Source of the DNA: Escherichia coli
GTDB lineage: Bacteria; Pseudomonadota; Gammaproteobacteria; Enterobacterales; Enterobacteriaceae
Assembly: GCF_044324875.1 (NCBI RefSeq)
Contig: NZ_CP172185.1
Length of the DNA: 64,000 bases
Strand: one strand, 5' to 3'
Part shown: positions 2,778 through 41,450 of the stretch, in pieces
Layout: each line of letters begins with the position of its first letter
Numbering within the stretch: position 1 is the first letter of the stretch
The notes under the pieces: generated by a model
What the model saw: the letters and a program-made list of their open reading frames with translations, nothing else
Told to the model about the DNA's origin: nothing
The model's database searches: none
Translations under genes and position numbers: made by a program

Positions 2778-3341
2778 GTGCGATATCTGGCAACATTGTT
2801 GTTATCTCTGGCGGTGTTAATCACCGCCGGGTGTGGCTGGCATCTGCGTGATACCACGCAGGTTCCTTCCACTATGAAGGTCATGATCCTGGACTCAGGC
2901 GATCCGAACGGGCCATTAAGCCGTGCGGTGCGTAACCAGTTACGTCTGAATGGTGTCGAGTTGCTTGATAAAGAAACCACGCGTAAGGACGTTCCATCCC
3001 TGCGTTTGGGTTCTGTATCAATCTCGCAGGATACCGCTTCAGTTTTCCGTAATGGTCAAACAGCGGAATATCAGATGGTGATGACTGTCAGTGCGAGCGT
3101 ATTGATTCCGGGTCAAGATATTTACCCAATTAGCGCCAAAGTCTTCCGTTCGTTCTTTGATAACCCACAAATGGCGTTAGCGAAAGATAACGAACAGGAG
3201 ATGATTGTAAAAGAGATGTACGACCGTGCTGCCGAACAGTTGATCCGTAAACTGCCAAGCATCCGTGCTGCTGAAATTCGTTCTAACGAAGATGATGTAG
3301 CAGCAACGCCTGCACGCGTCTCTACCACGCTGGGTAACTGA
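2778..3341 (+). CDS. lptE: LPS assembly outer-membrane lipoprotein LptE (RlpB)
   Basis: GTG start; lipoprotein signal peptide with lipobox LITAGC; immediately downstream of leuS as in E. coli. Confidence 0.9.
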
Positions 3342-16129: not shown

Positions 16130-16924
16130 TCATAATAATTGCGGCGGCGCAAAGCGACGGTTGTTTAAAACGGGAAGTTGCGCGCGCACCTGACGCACAC
16201 GTTCGGGCGTCACTTCCGCCATAATGAGTGCAGGCATTTCTGACGCTGCCGCAATGGTGACGCCAAAGGGATCTATAATCCGGCTTTGCCCGATATTTTT
16301 GTTCCCGCACTCCCCCGCCGCCACCATATAACAGGTGGTATCCAGCGCACGAGCGGCAAGCAACGTTGACCAGTGATGCTCCTTGAGCGGCCCACGAACC
16401 CAGGCGGCAGGAAGTACCAGGATTTCAGCTCCCTGTAATGCCTGTGCCAGCGCCAGCTCTGGAAAGCGTAAGTCATAACAGGTCATCAGACCGACCTTCA
16501 TCCCTTCCACCTCCAGTAACGGAGCTATTTCATTACCAGCATCAACATGGCGTGATTCCTGAATGGCAAATGCATCATAGAGATGCAGTTTGGCATAACG
16601 GGCGACGATGTTTCCTGCCTGTAGCGCCACCAGCATATTCCATGCGCGCCCCGGTGTTGAAGGAACATGAATCGTCAGAATTGTCGTCATCATGTTACGT
16701 TTACTTTCTCGACGTAAACGTCCGAGGAATTCGCCTTCCAGCAGCTGTGCTGATTTAACCGATAGATCTGCATCATGATCATCACGCGCCAACAATGCTT
16801 CCGGCAGGACAAACAGCGAAACGTCGTTTTCCGCCGCCTGCGCCATCAACGAGGCACAAATCTCAGCGTTCTTTTCCCACACAGATGTAACAGCAAACTG
16901 TCCTGCGGCAACCAGCATTGCCAC
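16130..16924 (-). CDS. ybeM: nitrilase-superfamily C-N hydrolase YbeM (Nit1-like amidase), intact
   Basis: 264-aa uninterrupted ORF with Glu/Lys/Cys catalytic-triad contexts ([23 protein letters not shown]). Confidence 0.8.
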
Positions 16925-17013
16925 CTCCTCCTGTCAGAGTCGTAAAATTCGCCAACGGCGATTATTCGGCGTTACACTTATCACTCATACAAATCAAATA
17001 GCAGGATTTTGCA

Positions 17014-17397
17014 GTGTTACAACTTCTTTTAGCAGTTTTTATTGGCGGTGGTACGGGAAGCGTGGCGAGATGGCTGTTAAGTATGCGATTTAACCCGCTG
17101 CATCAGGCGATTCCGTTGGGGACGCTGGCAGCAAACCTGATTGGGGCATTCATCATAGGAATGGGATTCGCCTGGTTTAGCAGGATGACGAACATTGATC
17201 CAGTGTGGAAAGTATTAATCACCACCGGATTTTGTGGCGGTCTAACAACCTTCTCAACATTTTCGGCAGAAGTGGTGTTTTTGTTACAAGAGGGCCGCTT
17301 TGGCTGGGCGTTACTGAACGTTTTCGTCAACCTTCTGGGGTCTTTTGCCATGACCGCACTGGCTTTCGGGCTGTTTTCCGCCTCAACCGCACACTAA
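17014..17397 (+). CDS. crcB: fluoride channel CrcB/FluC
   Basis: 127 aa, GTG start; four-TM small membrane protein matching remembered CrcB. Confidence 0.9.
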
Positions 17398-17402
17398 AGA
17401 CC

Positions 17403-17431
17403 AAAAAAAACCCGCTGATTAAGCGGGTTTT
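17403..17431. terminator. bidirectional rho-independent terminator between crcB and cspE
   Basis: AAAAAAAACCCGC-TGATTAA-GCGGGTTTT hairpin with flanking A/T runs. Confidence 0.8.
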
Positions 17432-17450
17432 GAATTCTTGCTGACGTATC

Positions 17451-17660
17451 TTACAGAGCGATTACGTTTGCAGCAGAAGGGCCTTTGGCACCGTTAGTGA
17501 TTTCGAACTCTACGCGCTGACCTTCAGCAAGAGTTTTAAAACCATTAGTCTGGATTGCAGAGAAGTGTACGAACACGTCTTTGCTGCCGTCTTCCGGAGT
17601 AATGAAACCGAATCCTTTGGACTCATTAAACCACTTAACGTTACCTTTAATCTTAGACAT
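17451..17660 (-). CDS. cspE: cold-shock protein CspE
   Basis: ORF 17451..17744 trimmed to [12 protein letters not shown] start (69 aa); RNP motifs KGFGFI and VFVHF. Confidence 0.93.
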
Positions 17661-17834
17661 CAAAATTACCTTTACATGAAAAATAGACACAAATGCTGTG
17701 TCGGTTACCAGTACACCAATTGTGGTACGCTTTGTCCAGTGCAACTTTACTAAAAAGTGATAAAAGTCGCGTTATTTTTGATGTTAATTATTTTACCCAT
17801 TGATTTTAAAGAGTTTACTAAAATTTCATTTGTC

Positions 17835-18395
17835 TCAAAACTGAAAGCGCATCCAGGCAAAGTACACATTGCCATTGTTATAGGTACCCGGAATGTAGGT
17901 CATCTGAAAAGTCACTGGACCATAACCCACAGAGGCCAATGGCAGTAGAACCGGGAGAGGGATGTAATTCCAGTTATCGCGTGCCGTTACGCCAGCGGTG
18001 AATCCCAGTCCTAAATGAAAATTTTCATCTGCCAGCGGTCGCCAGGTACTTTCCCATCCGTATCCGGCAATCGGTTCCCATTTGTTCCACGAGTCCTTAA
18101 ATGCCATGGCATACAGGCCATGCCAGTTTCCTTTTTCATCCCAACGCGACTGACCAAAACCGCCACCCCACGGTCGCTCGTTATAGCGATCGGTTTTTTC
18201 TTTGTCGTAAGCGAAACGTGCATGCCAGGTGATGGCAGGAATATATAAATCATAATGTTCAGGCTGTTGCCAGGTTTGTGCAATATTTTCTCTAAACGTT
18301 GTCATCCACTCATCTGCGTTAGCAAAAACTTTACCAACGCTGATTAACTGAATAAAAACAAAGGAAAAGATAGCGACATATTTACTCACGTTCAT
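17835..18395 (-). CDS. pagP: lipid A palmitoyltransferase PagP (CrcA)
   Basis: ORF trimmed to MNVSKY start (186 aa); signal peptide; outer-membrane beta-barrel with C-terminal aromatic. Confidence 0.9.
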
Positions 18396-18981
18396 TTGTG
18401 ACCATAAAACATTTATCAAAAATCTACTACTAGCATAGCAAAGCTACAATTAACATAACCTTAATAGCCCCAACATAAAGAACAATCTGAATAGCTGCTC
18501 TATTTATTTCCGCTTGTTTAAGTTAAATATTTCCGCGCATCGATTAAAGATGATGTATCGTTTTCTGCTATGGGAATAGTCATAAAAAAACCAAGTCTTT
18601 TTTGATGACAAAATACAACCAAGAAAAAATTACTTTATTTTTTAATAGGATACAAAAAAATCTCTTAACGAAGAATATATTATATATCGTCAACCTATGC
18701 TCATGTTAGATTATTTTTTGAGCGCACAGCCGCAGCTAACACCATTGCAATTAACAAATTTGCATCAATCCACCATCAATTTACACACATTATTATGTGA
18801 TAATTGCCAACCGCTAAATATGCGTTTTGTTATCTATGTATAAAAACAGCAAATTCAATGTCTTAATGGCAGTTTTTCTTGATTTTAATCAGCATTCATC
18901 GCCAATTTATTGGGCATATTTTTTCCTTAAGCTTTAGGAATTTTTTATTATTTACTTTGGGGCCTGGAGACAGGAAAAATT

Positions 18982-20367
18982 ATGCTGACATTCATTGAAC
19001 TCCTTATTGGAGTTGTGGTTATTGTGGGTGTAGCTCGCTACATCATTAAAGGGTATTCCGCCACTGGCGTGTTATTTGTCGGTGGCCTGTTATTGCTGAT
19101 TATCAGTGCCATTATGGGGCACAAAGTGTTACCGTCCAGCCAGGCTTCAACAGGCTACAGCGCCACGGATATCGTTGAATACGTTAAAATATTGCTAATG
19201 AGCCGCGGCGGCGACCTCGGCATGATGATTATGATGCTGTGTGGCTTTGCCGCTTACATGACCCATATCGGCGCGAATGATATGGTGGTCAAGCTGGCGT
19301 CAAAACCATTGCAGTATATTAACTCCCCTTACCTGCTGATGATTGCCGCCTATTTTGTCGCCTGTCTGATGTCTCTGGCCGTCTCTTCCGCGACCGGTCT
19401 GGGTGTTTTGCTGATGGCAACCCTGTTTCCGGTGATGGTAAACGTTGGTATCAGCCGTGGTGCAGCTGCTGCTATTTGTGCCTCCCCGGCGGCGATTATT
19501 CTCGCACCGACTTCAGGGGATGTGGTGCTGGCGGCGCAGGCTTCCGAAATGTCGCTGATTGACTTCGCCTTCAAAACAACGCTGCCTATCTCAATTGCTG
19601 CAATTATCGGCATGGCAATCGCCCACTTCTTCTGGCAACGTTATCTGGATAAAAAAGAACACATCTCTCATGAAATGTTAGATGTCAGTGAAATCACCAC
19701 CACTGCCCCTGCGTTTTATGCCATTTTGCCGTTCACGCCGATCATCGGAGTGCTGATTTTTGACGGCAAATGGGGCCCGCAATTACACATCATCACTATT
19801 CTGGTGATTTGTATGCTGATTGCCTCCATTCTGGAGTTCATCCGCAGCTTTAATACCCAGAAAGTTTTCTCTGGTCTGGAAGTGGCTTATCGCGGGATGG
19901 CAGATGCATTTGCAAACGTGGTGATGCTGCTGGTTGCCGCTGGGGTATTCGCTCAGGGGCTTAGCACCATCGGCTTTATTCAAAGTCTGATTTCTATCGC
20001 TACCTCGTTTGGTTCGGCGAGCATCATCCTGATGCTGGTATTGGTGATCCTGACAATGCTGGCGGCAGTCACGACCGGTTCAGGCAATGCGCCGTTTTAT
20101 GCGTTTGTTGAGATGATCCCGAAACTGGCGCACTCTTCCGGCATTAACCCGGCGTATTTGACTATCCCAATGCTGCAGGCGTCAAACCTCGGCCGTACCC
20201 TGTCACCCGTTTCTGGCGTAGTCGTTGCGGTTGCCGGGATGGCGAAAATCTCACCATTTGAAGTCGTAAAACGCACCTCGGTGCCGGTGCTTGTTGGGCT
20301 GGTGATTGTTATCGTTGCTACAGAGCTGATGGTGCCAGGAACGGCAGCCGCGGTCACAGGCAAGTAA
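18982..20367 (+). CDS. dcuC: anaerobic C4-dicarboxylate transporter DcuC
   Basis: 461 aa polytopic membrane protein matching remembered DcuC. Confidence 0.93.
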   Translation: MLTFIELLIGVVVIVGVARYIIKGYSATGVLFVGGLLLLIISAIMGHKVLPSSQASTGYSATDIVEYVKILLMSRGGDLGMMIMMLCGFAAYMTHIGANDMVVKLASKPLQYINSPYLLMIAAYFVACLMSLAVSSATGLGVLLMATLFPVMVNVGISRGAAAAICASPAAIILAPTSGDVVLAAQASEMSLIDFAFKTTLPISIAAIIGMAIAHFFWQRYLDKKEHISHEMLDVSEITTTAPAFYAILPFTPIIGVLIFDGKWGPQLHIITILVICMLIASILEFIRSFNTQKVFSGLEVAYRGMADAFANVVMLLVAAGVFAQGLSTIGFIQSLISIATSFGSASIILMLVLVILTMLAAVTTGSGNAPFYAFVEMIPKLAHSSGINPAYLTIPMLQASNLGRTLSPVSGVVVAVAGMAKISPFEVVKRTSVPVLVGLVIVIVATELMVPGTAAAVTGK

Positions 20368-30982: not shown

Positions 30983-31393
30983 ATGTCCAGACCAACTATC
31001 ATCATTAACGACCTGGATGCCGAACGCATCGATATTCTGCTGGAGCAACCCGCCTATGCTGGTTTGCCAATCGCCGACGCGTTAAACGCAGAGTTGGATC
31101 GCGCCCAAATGTGTTCGCCAGAAGAGATGCCACACGACGTGGTGACAATGAACAGCCGGGTTAAATTCCGCAATCTTAGCGATGGCGAAGTGCGTGTGCG
31201 CACGCTGGTGTATCCGGCAAAAATGACCGACAGCAATACTCAGCTTTCCGTTATGGCTCCGGTAGGTGCCGCACTGCTGGGGCTGCGCGTTGGCGATTCC
31301 ATTCACTGGGAACTTCCGGGCGGCGTTGCAACCCACCTTGAAGTGCTGGAACTCGAATACCAGCCAGAAGCTGCTGGCGACTACCTGCTTTAA
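30983..31393 (+). CDS. rnk: regulator of nucleoside diphosphate kinase Rnk (GreA/GreB-like)
   Basis: 136 aa matching remembered Rnk. Confidence 0.88.
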
Positions 31394-31425
31394 TCCCATC
31401 TGCACAAGCGATAACTCGCTTTGCC

Positions 31426-31449
31426 CAGAGGATGCACTCGCATCCTCTT
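31426..31449 (+). terminator. hairpin downstream of rnk
   Basis: AGAGGATGC-ACTC-GCATCCTCT followed by a weak T tract. Confidence 0.5.
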
Positions 31450-31535
31450 TCCGCTCAAATATCAACCAGATTTATCATTTTGCTCTTAAGCGCAGCATTC
31501 TAATCTGAACTGGTTATTCATCTGCGGAACCTCAT

Positions 31536-31625
31536 ATGAGCGAAGCTCTCGGTATCACTGCATTTTATATATTCATAGCCGCAATTATTGTTGCTGCAGT
31601 GCTATACCTTGAACAACGCTGGTAG
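31536..31625 (+). CDS. candidate 29-codon micro-ORF encoding a single-TM peptide (hypothetical)
   Basis: ATG...TAG, MSEALGITAFYIFIAAIIVAAVLYLEQRW; GGAA about 8 nt upstream; hydrophobic core of about 19 residues; below the 60-aa cutoff of the supplied ORF track. Confidence 0.2.
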   Translation: MSEALGITAFYIFIAAIIVAAVLYLEQRW

Positions 31626-31748
31626 CGCCTGGTTTTATTTATTTTCCAGCTCAATAGCAAATTCAGATCAAATCAGCCTCGCAAATCATAGATTCATAAC
31701 CAATAATGTGCTGTTATGTATACATGCAAAAACAAGGAGAGAATGCTT

Positions 31749-32177
31749 ATGTACAAAACAATCATCATGCCAGTGGATGTTTTCGAAATGGAATTGAGCG
31801 ACAAAGCGGTTCGCCACGCTGAATTCCTCGCCCAGGATGACGGAGTTATTCATCTACTTCACGTACTACCGGGGTCAGCCAGCCTGAGCCTGCACCGTTT
31901 TGCCGCTGATGTACGTCGTTTTGAAGAGCATCTGCAACATGAAGCAGAAGAACGTTTGCAAACGATGGTCAGCCACTTCACCATCGATCCTTCCCGCATT
32001 AAGCAACATGTCCGTTTTGGTAGTGTGCGGGATGAAGTTAACGAGTTAGCGAAAGAACTTGATGCAGATGTAGTAGTGATTGGTTCGCGTAACCCATCAA
32101 TTTCAACTCATCTGTTGGGTTCTAACGCCTCGAGCGTGATCCGCCACGCCAATTTGCCGGTGCTGGTTGTGCGTTAA
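31749..32177 (+). CDS. uspG: universal stress protein G
   Basis: ORF trimmed to [10 protein letters not shown] start (142 aa), preceded by AGGAG RBS; Usp-fold C-terminus (VVIGSRN...). Confidence 0.88.
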
Positions 32178-32297: not shown

Positions 32298-33863
32298 TTA
32301 TGCAGTTTTGGTGCGAATCAGGTAGTCAAAAGCACTCAGAGAGGCTTTGGCACCTTCGCCAGTGGCGATGATGATCTGCTTGTACGGAACCGTCGTACAG
32401 TCACCCGCTGCGAACACGCCTTTCACGTTGGTTTCGCATTTCGCATCAATGATAATCTCGCCCATGCGGTTACGTTCGACTGCGCCTTCGAGCCAGTTGG
32501 TGTTCGGCAGCAGACCAATCTGCACGAAAATACCGGCCAGTTCGATGTTGTGAATATCGCCGCTGACACGATCGCGATATTCCAGACCAACGACTTTGCT
32601 GCCGTCGCCTTTCACTTCCGTGGTTTGCGCATTCAGAATAATTTCGACGTTTTTCAGGCTGCGCAGTTTGTCCTGCAGAACCTGGTCGGCTTTCATTTCT
32701 GGCGCAAATTCCAGCAGCGTTACGTGCTCAACGATACCCGCCAGGTCAATTGCCGCTTCCACGCCGGAGTTACCGCCGCCGATAACCGCTACGCGTTTAC
32801 CTTTAAACAGCGGGCCGTCGCAGTGCGGGCAGTAGGTCACGCCTTTGGTGCGATACTGATCTTCGCCCGGAACGTTCATGTTGCGCCATTTTGCACCGGT
32901 CGCCACGATAATGCTGCGTGCTTTCAGTACCGCGCCAGAAGCTGTTTCAATCTGATGCAGGCCACCTTCAACCGCTGCCGGGATCAGTTTGCTGGCGCTC
33001 TGGCTGTCGATCACATCAACGTCGTATTCATCAACGTGAACTTTCAGCGCACCTGCCAGTTTCTGGCCTTCGGTCTTCGGTACAGAAATGTAGTTTTCGA
33101 TATCAACGGTATCGAGGATCTGACCACCAAAACGTTCGCCCATCAGACCGGTACGGATGCCTTTACGTGCGGAGTAAATTGCTGCCGCTGCACCCGCCGG
33201 GCCGGAACCGACGATTAATACGTCATAAGCATCACGCTTGTTCAGCTCTTCTGCCGCACGTTTTTCCGCGCCAGTATCAATTTTGGCGACGATTTCAGTC
33301 AACGTCATGCGACCCTGACCAAACTCTTTCCCGTTTACGAACACTGCCGGAACGCCCATCACGTTGCGATCGGTGATTTCGTTCTGGAAGGTGCCGCCGT
33401 CAATTGCAGTGTGCTTGATGCGCGGGTTCAGTACGCTCATCAGGTTCAGCGCCTGCACCACGTCCGGGCAGTTGTGGCAAGAGAGCGAGTAATAGGTTTC
33501 GAATTCAAAATCACCGTCAATATGGCGAATCTGCTCCAGCAGAGACTGCGCTTCTTTCGACGGATGACCACCGGTCCACAACAACGCCAGTACCAGCGAG
33601 GTAAACTCGTGGCCCAGCGGGGAACCTGCAAAACGTGGCCCCTGGTTAGAACCTGGGTTAGTGATCAGGAAAGACGGCTTACGCACCGGCAAGCTGTTAT
33701 CTTCTTTAAAGGTGACTTTGTCTGACAGTTCTGCGATTTCAGCCAACAGTTCCTTGATTTCTGCCGATTTAGCGCTGTCATCCAGCGTGGCAATTAACTC
33801 AACAGGCTTGGTCAATTTCTCAAGGTAAGCCTTGAGTTGAGTTTTCATATTTGTGTCGAGCAT
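32298..33863 (-). CDS. ahpF: alkyl hydroperoxide reductase subunit F
   Basis: ORF trimmed to MLDTNMKTQ start (521 aa); two redox CxxC centres (CHNCPD, CPHCDG); FAD/NAD GxGxxG motifs. Confidence 0.95.
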
Positions 33864-33885
33864 GTTTATCTCCTGGGCTTTAAAC

Positions 33886-33969
33886 ATCATCATGCAAGCG
33901 GCCTCTGCGGCTACCTGGATGCAGCTTGCATCATGGTGCGGGGAAGAAAATCGGGTGCCGCAGCACCCG
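33886..33969 (-). other. nested hairpins in the ahpC-ahpF spacer (candidate partial terminator/processing structure)
   Basis: 12-bp inverted repeat CATCATGCAAGC...GCTTGCATCATG (33886..33936) and CGGGTGC-CGCA-GCACCCG (33952..33969). Confidence 0.4.
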
Positions 33970-34033
33970 AAGAATTAGGTGAATTTCCGAAGTATTTCGC
34001 GCCGGAGTTGGTAGCGCGAAAGACGAAGGAAAT

Positions 34034-34597
34034 TTAGATTTTACCAACCAGGTCCAGAGACGGAGCCAGAGTTACTTCACCTTCTTTCCATTTAGCCGGG
34101 CAAACTTCACCTGGGTGAGAAGCTACGTACTGTGCTGCTTTGATTTTACGCAGCAGGTCAGACGCGTCACGGCCAATGCCTTCAGCGGTAACTTCGATTG
34201 CCTGGATGATACCCTGCGGGTCAACAACGAAGGTCGCACGGTCAGCCAGACCTTCATCTTCACGCATGTTGTCGAAGTTACGGGTCAGGGCGCCAGTCGG
34301 GTCGCCGATCATCGCATATTTGATTTTAGCGATGGTTTCAGAGCTGCTGTGCCATGCTTTGTGGGTGAAGTGAGTATCGGTAGATACTGCGTATACGTCT
34401 ACGCCCAGTTTCTGCAGTTCTTCGTAGTGGTCAGCAACGTCACCCAGTTCGGTCGGGCATACGAAAGTAAAGTCAGCCGGGTAGAAGAAGAAGACGCTCC
34501 AGCGGCCTTCGGTATCTTTTTCGGTGATTTCGATGAATTCGCCGTTTTTGAATGCCTGGTTTTTAAAAGGTTTAATTTTGGTGTTAATCAAGGACAT
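34034..34597 (-). CDS. ahpC: alkyl hydroperoxide reductase subunit C (peroxiredoxin)
   Basis: 187 aa; peroxidatic Cys motif FTFVCPTE and resolving Cys near the C-terminus. Confidence 0.95.
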
Positions 34598-35715: not shown

Positions 35716-35922
35716 AATATAATTCATGGATGGTTGAAATATATCCCTGCTTTTCAACCATCCTAAAAAAGCATGAATTGCTCGCTCTACCCTAAGTGGC
35801 TGTGCTATTTTAGAAAAACTTAATCCTGAGTTAAGCAAAAAAACATAATACAAATAAATACAACAGCAACATTATTGATCAAGTGAATGATTTATAGAAG
35901 AGATAATATAACGGAGTATGTT

Positions 35923-36825
35923 ATGGCGAATCTTTATGACCTAAAAAAATTTGATCTGAATTTACTGGTCATATTTGAGTGTATTTATCAACATCTCAGC
36001 ATTAGTAAAGCGGCAGAATCATTATATATAACGCCCTCTGCTGTTAGTCAGTCGTTACAACGTTTACGTGCGCAATTTAATGACCCGTTATTCATTCGCT
36101 CAGGGAAAGGTATCGCGCCGACTACGACAGGGTTAAATCTGCATCATCATCTTGAGAAAAATCTCAGAGGCATTGAACAAACGATCAATATTGTTAATAA
36201 GTCTGAGCTAAAGAAAAATTTTATTATCTACGGTCCTCAGCTTATTTCTTGTACTAATAACAACATGCTAATCCGCTGTCTTAGACAAGATACTTCAATC
36301 GATATAGAATGCCATGACATACTGCTTTCAGCTGAAAATGCCGAAGAACTGTTGGTTCAACGCAAAACTGACCTGGCAATTACACTACAACCAGTAATTA
36401 GCCGCTCTGTCATCTGCATGCCGTTACATACTATTCGCAATTCTCTTATATGTAGCAACAAACATCCTCGTATTACCGATACCAGTAACTATGAACAAAT
36501 TATCGCCGAAGAATTCACCTTGTTAATATCTAAATCAGCAGGGATTGACGAAATTCAAATGGACATAGATGAACGTTTTATGAACCGTAAAGTTTCATTT
36601 CGCAGTTCTTCTTTGTTGACGATAATTAATAGTATTTCTGTTACTGACTTATTGGGCATTGTGCCCACCGAACTGTACGATTTACATCGTGATTTTTTGA
36701 AGTTACAAGAGATAAAACTGGAACGACCACTTCCTGCGGTTAAACTTTATATTTCCTATAACAAGGCTTCGTTGAACAACCTTGTCTTCTCACGATTCAT
36801 AGATCGTTTAAATGATAGCTTCTGA
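35923..36825 (+). CDS. ybdO: LysR-family transcriptional regulator YbdO
   Basis: ORF trimmed to MANLYDLKKFDLNLL start (300 aa); N-terminal HTH; conspicuously AT-rich coding sequence. Confidence 0.8.
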   Translation: MANLYDLKKFDLNLLVIFECIYQHLSISKAAESLYITPSAVSQSLQRLRAQFNDPLFIRSGKGIAPTTTGLNLHHHLEKNLRGIEQTINIVNKSELKKNFIIYGPQLISCTNNNMLIRCLRQDTSIDIECHDILLSAENAEELLVQRKTDLAITLQPVISRSVICMPLHTIRNSLICSNKHPRITDTSNYEQIIAEEFTLLISKSAGIDEIQMDIDERFMNRKVSFRSSSLLTIINSISVTDLLGIVPTELYDLHRDFLKLQEIKLERPLPAVKLYISYNKASLNNLVFSRFIDRLNDSF

Positions 36826-36971
36826 TTTATTACCACGGATAAATGTTATATTACGCATCAATTGATTCATTGTGTGAATATAAAATAATGTGCTCTATCT
36901 TGCTTCGTTTACCCTATAATTAGCGGATTCATCTCACGAGTCACCCCGTAACGTTCAGAGAGCGTTTTCAG

Positions 36972-41160: not shown

Positions 41161-41358
41161 TTAGCAGCAGCGCGCGCCGCCTTTTCCACCGTAGCGCGCG
41201 TCCTGCCGCTCACGGAAAAACTCCTCGTAGGTCATCGGCGTTTGATCGGGATGGTTAACCCGCATATGTTCGACATAGTTGTCGTAATCAGGCATACCAA
41301 TCATCAGCTTCGCCGCCTGACCTAAATATTTTCCGGCTTTTGCCAGTGAATCAAACAT
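41161..41358 (-). CDS. ybdD: DUF466 small protein YbdD (partner of CstA)
   Basis: 65-aa ORF matching remembered YbdD, downstream of cstA on the same strand. Confidence 0.8.
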
Positions 41359-41390
41359 TAATACCTCCGGTAATCAGGTTGCCAGGAGAG

Positions 41391-41428
41391 TGCCGGATGC
41401 GGCGTGAACGCCTTATCCGGCCTACAAA
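41391..41428. repeat. REP (repetitive extragenic palindromic) element
   Basis: TGCCGGATGCGGCGTGAACGCCTTATCCGGCCTAC, canonical E. coli REP; the same sequence recurs at 63137. Confidence 0.75.
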
Positions 41429-41450
41429 TGCTATCAACGCGCTCGGTCAG

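Follow-up and report, generated by a model that had tools for sequence, protein, structure and literature searches.

The long A/T-rich spacer between pagP and dcuC of Escherichia coli is probably a shared, H-NS-bound regulatory region with a promoter at each end

The long A/T-rich spacer between the divergent genes pagP and dcuC of Escherichia coli is very probably a shared regulatory region, coated by H-NS, that serves two conditionally expressed genes and contains no separate gene of its own. This reading draws on sequence elements within the spacer and their conservation, on the published occupancy of the region by FNR, sigma70 and H-NS in K-12, and on the reported effects of hns and fnr. 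The region is ordinary and already characterised: its two promoters and their inputs from H-NS, FNR, PhoP and SlyA can all be found in the literature. Positions below refer to the window, the whole 64-kb stretch of E. coli DNA that was analysed, and the features discussed are collected in table 1.

The spacer lies on the E. coli core chromosome in the gene order crcB, cspE, pagP, dcuC, dpiA, dpiB, and the sequence-only reading of this DNA had named its two neighbours correctly. That reading placed the spacer at 18420–18981 (562 bp). The right end stands, but the left end has to be moved: 18420 was chosen because the longest pagP open reading frame begins at a TTG at 18419, whereas RefSeq pagP (561 bp, 186 aa) begins at an ATG at 18395, a start shared by all the E. 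coli records that were inspected, curated MG1655 among them. The true spacer therefore runs from 18396 to 18981, 586 bp with 30.5% G+C, and the analysis thus replaces the earlier left boundary. In a crude gene map this is the longest of the 53 gaps in the window (median gap 89 bp), while the 500-bp windows of lowest G+C (0.30, against an average of 0.519 over the 64 kb) all fall at about 18.3–18.6 kb. The description of the spacer as long and A/T-rich is thus borne out.

The spacer was found in 5381 of the 5426 complete E. coli genomes, as a single copy in each. The divergent arrangement of pagP and dcuC is also present in other Escherichia species and in Citrobacter, Salmonella, Enterobacter, Klebsiella, Raoultella, Yokenella, Trabulsiella, Pluralibacter and Mangrovibacter, with spacers of about 280–720 bp and 29–42% G+C, the E. 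coli spacer being among the longer ones. This recurrence across genera indicates that the length and A/T-richness of the spacer go back far in the history of the locus. No feature is annotated within it in six PGAP records or in the curated MG1655 RefSeq entry, where the spacer occupies 655,969–656,556. In version 2 of the MG1655 sequence (U00096.2), which is offset from version 3 by 777 bp, the spacer lies at 655,192–655,779, between the start codons of dcuC (ATG at 655,191) and pagP (ATG at 655,780). All the occupancy data considered here come from K-12, whose allele of the spacer core differs from that of the window by approximately 8%.

Long A/T-rich divergent spacers often hold nucleoid-protein sites, as the sequence-only reading had pointed out, and for this spacer the K-12 data agree. 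Two H-NS ChIP-chip regions, 654,590–655,558 and 655,584–656,283 (U00096.2; supplements of Myers et al. 2013), map to about 17892–18591 and 18615–19583 of the window, covering the whole spacer and the 5′ parts of both genes. The dcuC/pagP spacer is flagged ‘HNS’ in an RpoD gSELEX table, and expression of a pagP-lacZ fusion was reported to rise 18-fold in a BW25113 hns mutant. Derepression in an hns mutant was found in the literature for pagP only, with none found for dcuC. The FNR peak at dcuC is reported in both the wild type and an hns/stpA mutant, with the entry ‘None’ in the nucleoid-protein column.

These features resemble those of H-NS-silenced regions that are subject to counter-silencing by SlyA, PhoP or RcsB: the spacer is approximately 70% A+T, H-NS covers all of it, pagP is derepressed by loss of hns and needs SlyA, and IS insertions occur both naturally and under selection. 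The resemblance has limits, since pagP/dcuC is a core, vertically inherited locus, unlike H-NS-silenced islands that were acquired horizontally, and H-NS does not prevent FNR from binding at the dcuC end. H-NS-silenced A/T-rich regions such as bgl and flhDC are frequent targets of IS5 and IS1, and IS5 insertions in the pagP/dcuC spacer recurred in kanamycin-selected lines. Among sequenced strains, 873.10 carries IS1 and IS3-family elements within the spacer, and MINF_8D carries an IS1 with dcuC-dpiAB deleted.

Cross-genus alignment revealed only two conserved footprints in the spacer, one at each end: 18403–18470 on the pagP side and 18873–18925 on the dcuC side. The second of these contains an FNR box that is invariant or nearly so in the 14 strains and genera of Enterobacteriaceae that were aligned. 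The window's box is identical to the K-12 FNR PWM site CTGATTAAAATCAA at 655,281 (U00096.2), which coincides with an FNR ChIP-seq peak (Myers et al. 2013). The same study places dcuC in the directly FNR-activated category, with a difference of about 20-fold between aerobic and anaerobic growth (ratio 0.05). After the FNR box comes a block, TTTATT(G/C)GGCA(T/C)ATTT, that is conserved across genera and includes a conserved −10-like hexamer 22 nt downstream of the box; a sigma70 ChIP-seq peak at 655,235 (U00096.2; Myers et al. 2013) falls at about 18938 of the window. We infer from these elements a dcuC transcription start site (TSS) near 18927 and a 5′ UTR of about 55 nt. Taken from the −10-like CATATT and the sigma70 peak, the centre of the FNR box would lie at about −41.5, the geometry of a class II promoter. 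Myers et al. remark of dcuC ‘TSS not in peak region’, so the recorded start may differ from the one predicted here. The dcuC end shares with the class II FNR promoters of E. coli a box matching 9 of 10 consensus positions, a conserved −10-like hexamer and FNR binding in vivo in K-12, as well as FNR-dependent, anaerobically induced expression of the gene; it differs from those with a mapped TSS in that the −41.5 spacing is a predicted one.

The Shine–Dalgarno motif of dcuC, ACAGG(A/G)(A/G), is likewise conserved across genera. Upstream of the FNR box, the segment 18746–18878 diverges by 0.8–3% within E. coli, and its motifs AAAAACA and TTAAT are partly conserved across genera. It includes an A-rich stretch at 18840–18868, and because this stretch sits where such contacts usually fall, the segment is a candidate for contacts with an upstream activator or with the alpha-CTD.

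At the pagP end the case for a PhoP site comes from comparison between genera. The best match to the PhoP-box pattern scanned, (T/G)GTTTA-N5-(T/G)GTTTA, is TATTAAggttaTGTTAA, with three mismatches; the window holds 181 equally good matches against 125 expected, which is chance level for the pattern by itself. Of the two kinds of site for which the sequence-only reading had proposed a search, the FNR box is thus the one that emerges as a motif, while the PhoP match does not stand out as a bare pattern. However, both half-sites of the direct repeat listed in table 1 are kept from Escherichia to Klebsiella, and the second half of the PhoP box footprinted with DNase at Salmonella pagP, CTGTTTATAGTTTGTTAAG, aligns with one of the E. 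coli half-sites. This conservation and this alignment suggest that the repeat at pagP is of PhoP type. The repeat is also the best match to the 11-bp-phased ArcA pattern, with one mismatch to TGTTA-N6-TGTTA, in agreement with an ArcA PWM site, lacking a ChIP peak, that has been reported upstream of dcuC/crcA (PMC3798270).

The putative pagP −10 hexamer is of a conserved GCTAyAAT type, the E. coli TATGCT aligning with TATTAT in Salmonella and TACAAT in Citrobacter. It predicts a TSS near 18425 and a 5′ UTR of about 30 nt; the TSS of Salmonella pagP lies 16 nt from the ATG, giving a 16-nt 5′ UTR. A sigma70 ChIP-seq peak at 655,742 (U00096.2), which corresponds to about 18433 of the window, rises about 10-fold anaerobically, from 37 to 366 (Myers et al. 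2013 and supplements). The PhoP-activated pagP promoter of Salmonella enterica has been assigned to architecture IV, with two PhoP boxes and a short 5′ UTR (Zwir et al. 2012). The E. coli promoter is like it in the orthologous gene and position, in the aligned phased half-sites and −10 element, and in the short leader predicted for both. It is unlike it in that the best-fitting E. coli repeat aligns 11 bp, or one half-site, further downstream than the footprinted box, and the distance from repeat to −10 is 12 nt in E. coli versus 23 nt in Salmonella. The action of PhoP at the pagP promoter was demonstrated in Salmonella. A study of E. coli biofilms reported that, under its conditions, the induction of pagP did not depend on PhoP and did depend on H-NS and SlyA, SlyA being required for it. 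RcsB has been reported to act upstream of SlyA.

Among consensus scans for PhoP, FNR, sigma54, CRP, ArcA, NarL, IHF, SlyA and H-NS sites, only the FNR box stands out. No sigma70 match of at least 9/12 occurs anywhere in the spacer of the window's allele, where dinucleotide shuffles have 4.2 ± 2.3 and 0.7% of them are as poor; at 8/12 there is no depletion of sigma70-like matches. The anaerobic sigma70 ChIP-seq list contains only two peaks in the spacer, each about 40 bp upstream of a start codon. The suggestion of multiple promoters therefore holds for the two expected ones and not for any further promoter; as far as the sigma70 ChIP data go, only the two expected start sites are seen, the outcome that the sequence-only reading had itself named as telling against its proposal. 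RpoN/NtrC gSELEX peaks have been reported at 655,760, and no good sigma54 motif accounts for them: the spacer holds only three-mismatch matches to TGGCAC-N5-TTGCW (GG at −24, GC at −12), at 18848–18863 on the minus strand and 18912–18927 on the plus strand. The latter lacks the −12 GC, and such matches are fewer across the window than expected from shuffles.

Table 1. Features of the pagP–dcuC spacer in window coordinates, and frequencies of the core alleles among 5426 complete E. coli genomes.
Feature	Position	Strand	Basis or frequency
Whole pagP–dcuC divergent regulatory region	18396–18981		Composition; core E. coli distribution; H-NS-bound in K-12
Putative pagP −10 hexamer, TATGCT	18432–18437	−	Alignment with other genera; 12 nt downstream of the repeat
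PhoP-type direct repeat, TATTAA-ggtta-TGTTAA	18450–18466	−	Pattern match and cross-genus conservation
Fast-evolving A/T-rich core (226 bp)	18520–18745		Mosaic alleles in E. coli
Upstream part of the dcuC control region	18746–18878	+	Conserved within Escherichia
FNR box, TTGATTTTAATCAG	18879–18892	+	9/10 consensus positions of TTGAT-N4-ATCAA (1 mismatch)
Putative dcuC −10 hexamer, CATATT	18915–18920	+	Within the conserved block TTTATTGGGCATATTT
dcuC Shine–Dalgarno region, GGAGACAGGAA	18968–18975	+	Upstream of the ATG at 18982
Core allele, K-12 type			About 3277 genomes at ≥95%
Core allele, Nissle/B2 type			About 1029 genomes at ≥95%
Core allele, O157 type			About 455 genomes at ≥95%
Core allele, window's type			About 141 genomes at ≥95%

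The sequence-only reading had also raised the possibility of an unannotated small RNA, an idea that we find unsupported. In its most concrete form it would be an sRNA like the predicted Shigella ‘Ssr31’, made within the spacer from the pagP strand and acting in trans or on pagP. Ssr31 (pagP/dcuC, 693,980–694,274, pagP strand) was positive by RT-PCR in S. flexneri 2a 301, and the spacer is long enough for an RNA of this type. However, the RT-PCR result was not backed by northern blotting or RACE, and an amplicon on the pagP strand beside pagP could represent read-through, an upstream pagP transcript or DNA carry-over. An Rfam covariance-model scan of 16900–19600, the kind of check that the earlier reading had proposed, yielded nothing credible in the spacer, where the only matches had E ≥ 4.6 and scored far under the gathering threshold; its sole real match was a cspA-type thermoregulator on cspE. 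Folds of 100-nt sliding windows on both strands gave z-scores within ±2 over the spacer interior, no better than shuffles, and a 305-nt minus-strand fold gave z = +0.47. The spacer contains no terminator-like hairpin and, in the window's allele, no promoter match of at least 9/12, and K-12 shows no central sigma70 ChIP peak. The Term-seq supplements of Adams et al. 2021 (PMC7815308) have no entry for dcuC or pagP, curated MG1655 lists nothing here, and the RNA would have to occupy the middle of the spacer, the most variable and least conserved part of the locus. Such an sRNA is thus highly improbable.

We give hardly any weight to a long structured 5′ leader (a riboswitch, thermosensor or attenuator) of dcuC or pagP extending over much of the spacer. 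Room for a distal start is left by the recorded dcuC TSS, which is not within the FNR peak region (Myers et al.), and two 100-nt windows spanning the dcuC start codon gave z-scores of about −2.3 to −2.7. This signal disappears in a dedicated fold of the dcuC leader (18925–19020, z = +0.32), and RNAalifold on 14 sequences returned −0.88 kcal/mol with no covarying pair, the only ‘pairs’ being the FNR palindrome. There is no Rfam leader in the spacer, and both the sigma70 peaks approximately 40 bp from each ATG and the 16-nt 5′ UTR of Salmonella pagP argue for short leaders. Coding potential is equally sparse: as claimed from the sequence, no open reading frame reaches 60 aa and the micro-ORFs are trivial ones, five ATG/GTG frames of 12–48 codons, the longest encoding 48 aa. 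We rejected these as small protein genes, since their start or frame is lost in O157, Nissle or other Escherichia and none of the five has a Shine–Dalgarno sequence. The analysis thus adds a clear negative result, on sRNAs, leaders and small proteins alike, to the reading of the spacer as a divergent regulatory region.

The centre of the spacer behaves very differently from its conserved ends. The core, 18520–18745, cannot be aligned across genera, nor with other Escherichia clades, and is absent or shorter in genera other than Escherichia; in E. whittamii-like clades it is at least 50% different, against 20–40% for the parts of the spacer on either side. Among six E. coli genomes, nucleotide diversity (pi) in the core is 0.095–0.137 (about 0.10–0.14) versus 0.00–0.05 in the surrounding 3.5 kb, and core alleles within the species differ by 8–15%. 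Discrete allele classes emerged at ≥95% identity when each allele was queried against the 5426 genomes. There are few intermediates: the Nissle query matched 1029 genomes at ≥95% but one at 90–95% and 777 at 80–90%. Haplotype blocks are mosaic, as in strain L26, whose left part resembles K-12 and whose right part resembles O157. Between K-12 and O157 the core differs by 14.5% and the third codon positions of pagP and dcuC by 0.8%; K-12 and isolate 624 present the reverse pattern (core 1.3%, flanks 7.1%), and in most pairs of strains the divergence of the core exceeds that of the flanking third codon positions only by a factor of about 1.5–2. When about 960 overlapping 200-bp windows covering 48 kb were ranked in four strains, the core came between 2nd and 39th, and it sits among 2–7 distinct divergent regions per strain pair, a consistent but not a unique hotspot. 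The centre of the spacer can thus be added to the fastest-diverging segments of its 48-kb neighbourhood, with alleles that are discrete and recombining. All alleles have a G+C content of 30–35%, which is close to the mutational equilibrium of E. coli.

Several origins for this variability were considered and set aside. The core is not a repeat or mobile-element remnant, being single copy in each genome, and its alleles are not ancient trans-specific ones, since they are 8–15% apart within E. coli versus 22–55% from other Escherichia clades. Ongoing hypermutation is unlikely, given that each class is internally stable, with 307 genomes at ≥99% identity to the O157-type allele.

The simplest reading of the core is that it is under compositional constraint only and is exchanged by short-patch recombination. 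Alternatively, it could be a polymorphic module of at least four mosaic classes, kept by diversifying or lineage-specific selection, whose alleles set H-NS silencing or provide a distal promoter, so that expression of pagP and/or dcuC differs between lineages. The discreteness of the classes and the scarcity of intermediates would fit such selection, as would the mosaic blocks and the contrast between core and flanking third positions in K-12 versus O157. The K-12-type allele has two 9/12 sigma70 matches facing dcuC, one of which, ATGACA-17-AATTAT, is the dcuC promoter proposed in the gSELEX paper, while the O157 allele has one and the other alleles, including that of the window, have none; the recurrent IS5 insertions in kanamycin-selected lines point in the same direction. 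However, K-12 anaerobic sigma70 ChIP gave no peak at the allele-specific promoter-like sites, several other segments in the same 48 kb are equally or more divergent, and relaxed constraint with recombination would explain the modest excess of divergence seen in most pairs. We therefore consider selection on the core unlikely.

Divergent intergenic alleles have reportedly been described in E. coli core genomes under the name ‘horizontal regulatory switching’. The core is like these in being a short non-coding segment whose allele classes diverge far beyond the flanking genes and are distributed independently of them. It is unlike them in that its alleles are homologous and 8–15% apart, with no wholesale replacement by unrelated sequence. 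Of all the elements of the spacer, only the fast-evolving core with its alleles holds some potential for new biology; it is mildly interesting and belongs to a known class of intergenic polymorphism.

On the reading of the spacer as a shared, H-NS-coated region with compositional constraint at its centre, its three parts would work as follows. The pagP end (about 18425–18470, minus strand) would be a weak sigma70 promoter that relies on activators or anti-silencers, with PhoP acting on the phased direct repeat, and SlyA and RcsB lifting H-NS repression of pagP. The dcuC end (about 18840–18927, plus strand) would be a class II FNR-activated promoter that switches dcuC on anaerobically. The middle (about 18520–18745) would contribute A/T-rich DNA, about 230 bp long, on which sequence-specific constraint is slight or absent. 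Because the core is near the mutational-equilibrium G+C, H-NS would bind it and may spread or bridge over both promoters, keeping the genes off until specific activators act. If only composition matters, the core can be expected to drift fast, to recombine in short patches and to tolerate IS insertions. The core would serve as a platform for H-NS rather than as mere filler.

The analysis ties published inputs to exact coordinates in the window, and its importance beyond such housekeeping is small. The two genes act in lipid A palmitoylation (pagP) and anaerobic C4-dicarboxylate transport (dcuC), and the locus affects outer-membrane remodelling, with a role in aminoglycoside tolerance suggested (PMC6307192). 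If the core alleles were to differ functionally, the spacer would represent a compact natural regulatory polymorphism at an H-NS-silenced locus of the E. coli core genome.

Around pagP, the window is locally mosaic. When window positions 17835-20367 were compared with the K-12 locus (L001) and with locus L002, the PagP protein was 99.5% identical to that of K-12 versus 98.4% to that of strain NY1601, while the pagP-dcuC spacer was 99.8% identical to that of NY1601 and only 95.4% to that of K-12. This opposite affinity of gene and spacer implies a recombination breakpoint near the start of pagP.

Comparison of the window with K-12, O157 and Nissle revealed further strongly divergent segments (see table), so the A/T-rich core of the spacer is not the sole divergence hotspot there. 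Divergence reached 30% in the citR/dsbG region and 46% against Nissle at about 41.3 kb, which on the Nissle gene map probably corresponds to the gap separating ybdD from cstA; around 3.0 kb, at a place that the K-12 gene map puts within or close to lptE, it reached about 17%. Gene content also varies: ybdR sits between yldA and uspG in K-12 and O157 and is absent from Nissle. In the window, rnk (30983-31393) is followed by an ORF at 31716-32177, and this spacing suggests that ybdR is likewise missing (about 31400-31720).

Features located in the window and in the K-12 spacer
Feature	Position	Strand or direction	Remarks
Two promoter-like sites, ATGACA-17-AATTAT and ACAACA-17-TATAAT	L001 spacer offsets 212 and 259	facing dcuC	9/12 matches to sigma70 consensus; K-12-type core allele
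cspA thermoregulator (Rfam model) on cspE mRNA	17403-17761	-	123 bits; gathering score 78
cspE terminator	about 17403-17440		between crcB and cspE, which are convergent
Divergent segment	about 35850-36900		vs K-12/O157/Nissle
Divergent segment	about 41250-41450		vs K-12/O157/Nissle
Divergent segment	about 2900-3200		vs K-12/O157/Nissle
Divergent segment	about 33850-34150		vs K-12/O157/Nissle

The spacer takes natural IS insertions. E. coli 873.10 (L096 1747-3966) carries an IS1B-like and an IS3-family element, both between pagP and dcuC, and MINF_8D (L085 4182-4879) has an IS1 in the spacer, which is joined to citC by deletion of dcuC-dpiA-dpiB. Recurrent IS5 insertions in the spacer have been described in kanamycin-selected laboratory lines (PMC6307192).

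Beyond pagP, the thermoregulator match covers the 5' UTR, coding region and terminator of cspE; the terminator also gave several weak matches to leader and sRNA models. For pagP itself, TTG 18419 offers a possible upstream extension of the ORF from the RefSeq start, ATG 18395. The putative -10 element and TSS (18425-18437) lie upstream of both codons, so promoter position does not choose between them, and the 24-bp extension (18395-18419) falls within the predicted 5' UTR.

Published gSELEX data place binding of RpoN holoenzyme and NtrC in the spacer at MG1655 v2 655,760, equivalent to about 18415 in the window. No convincing sigma54 -24/-12 motif was found in the spacer; the best sigma54-like match near this position, TGGTAAAGTTTTTGCT (18321-18336, minus strand), is within the pagP coding region.

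The window allele of the spacer (18396-18981) contains no sigma70 match of at least 9/12, against 4.2 ± 2.3 in dinucleotide shuffles, of which 0.7% were as low; no depletion of 8/12 matches was seen. At one of the two K-12-type sites, AATTAT is AATTAC in the window allele (18602-18640), the final T being lost. This promoter-like content is allele-specific and lies within a region bound by H-NS in K-12.
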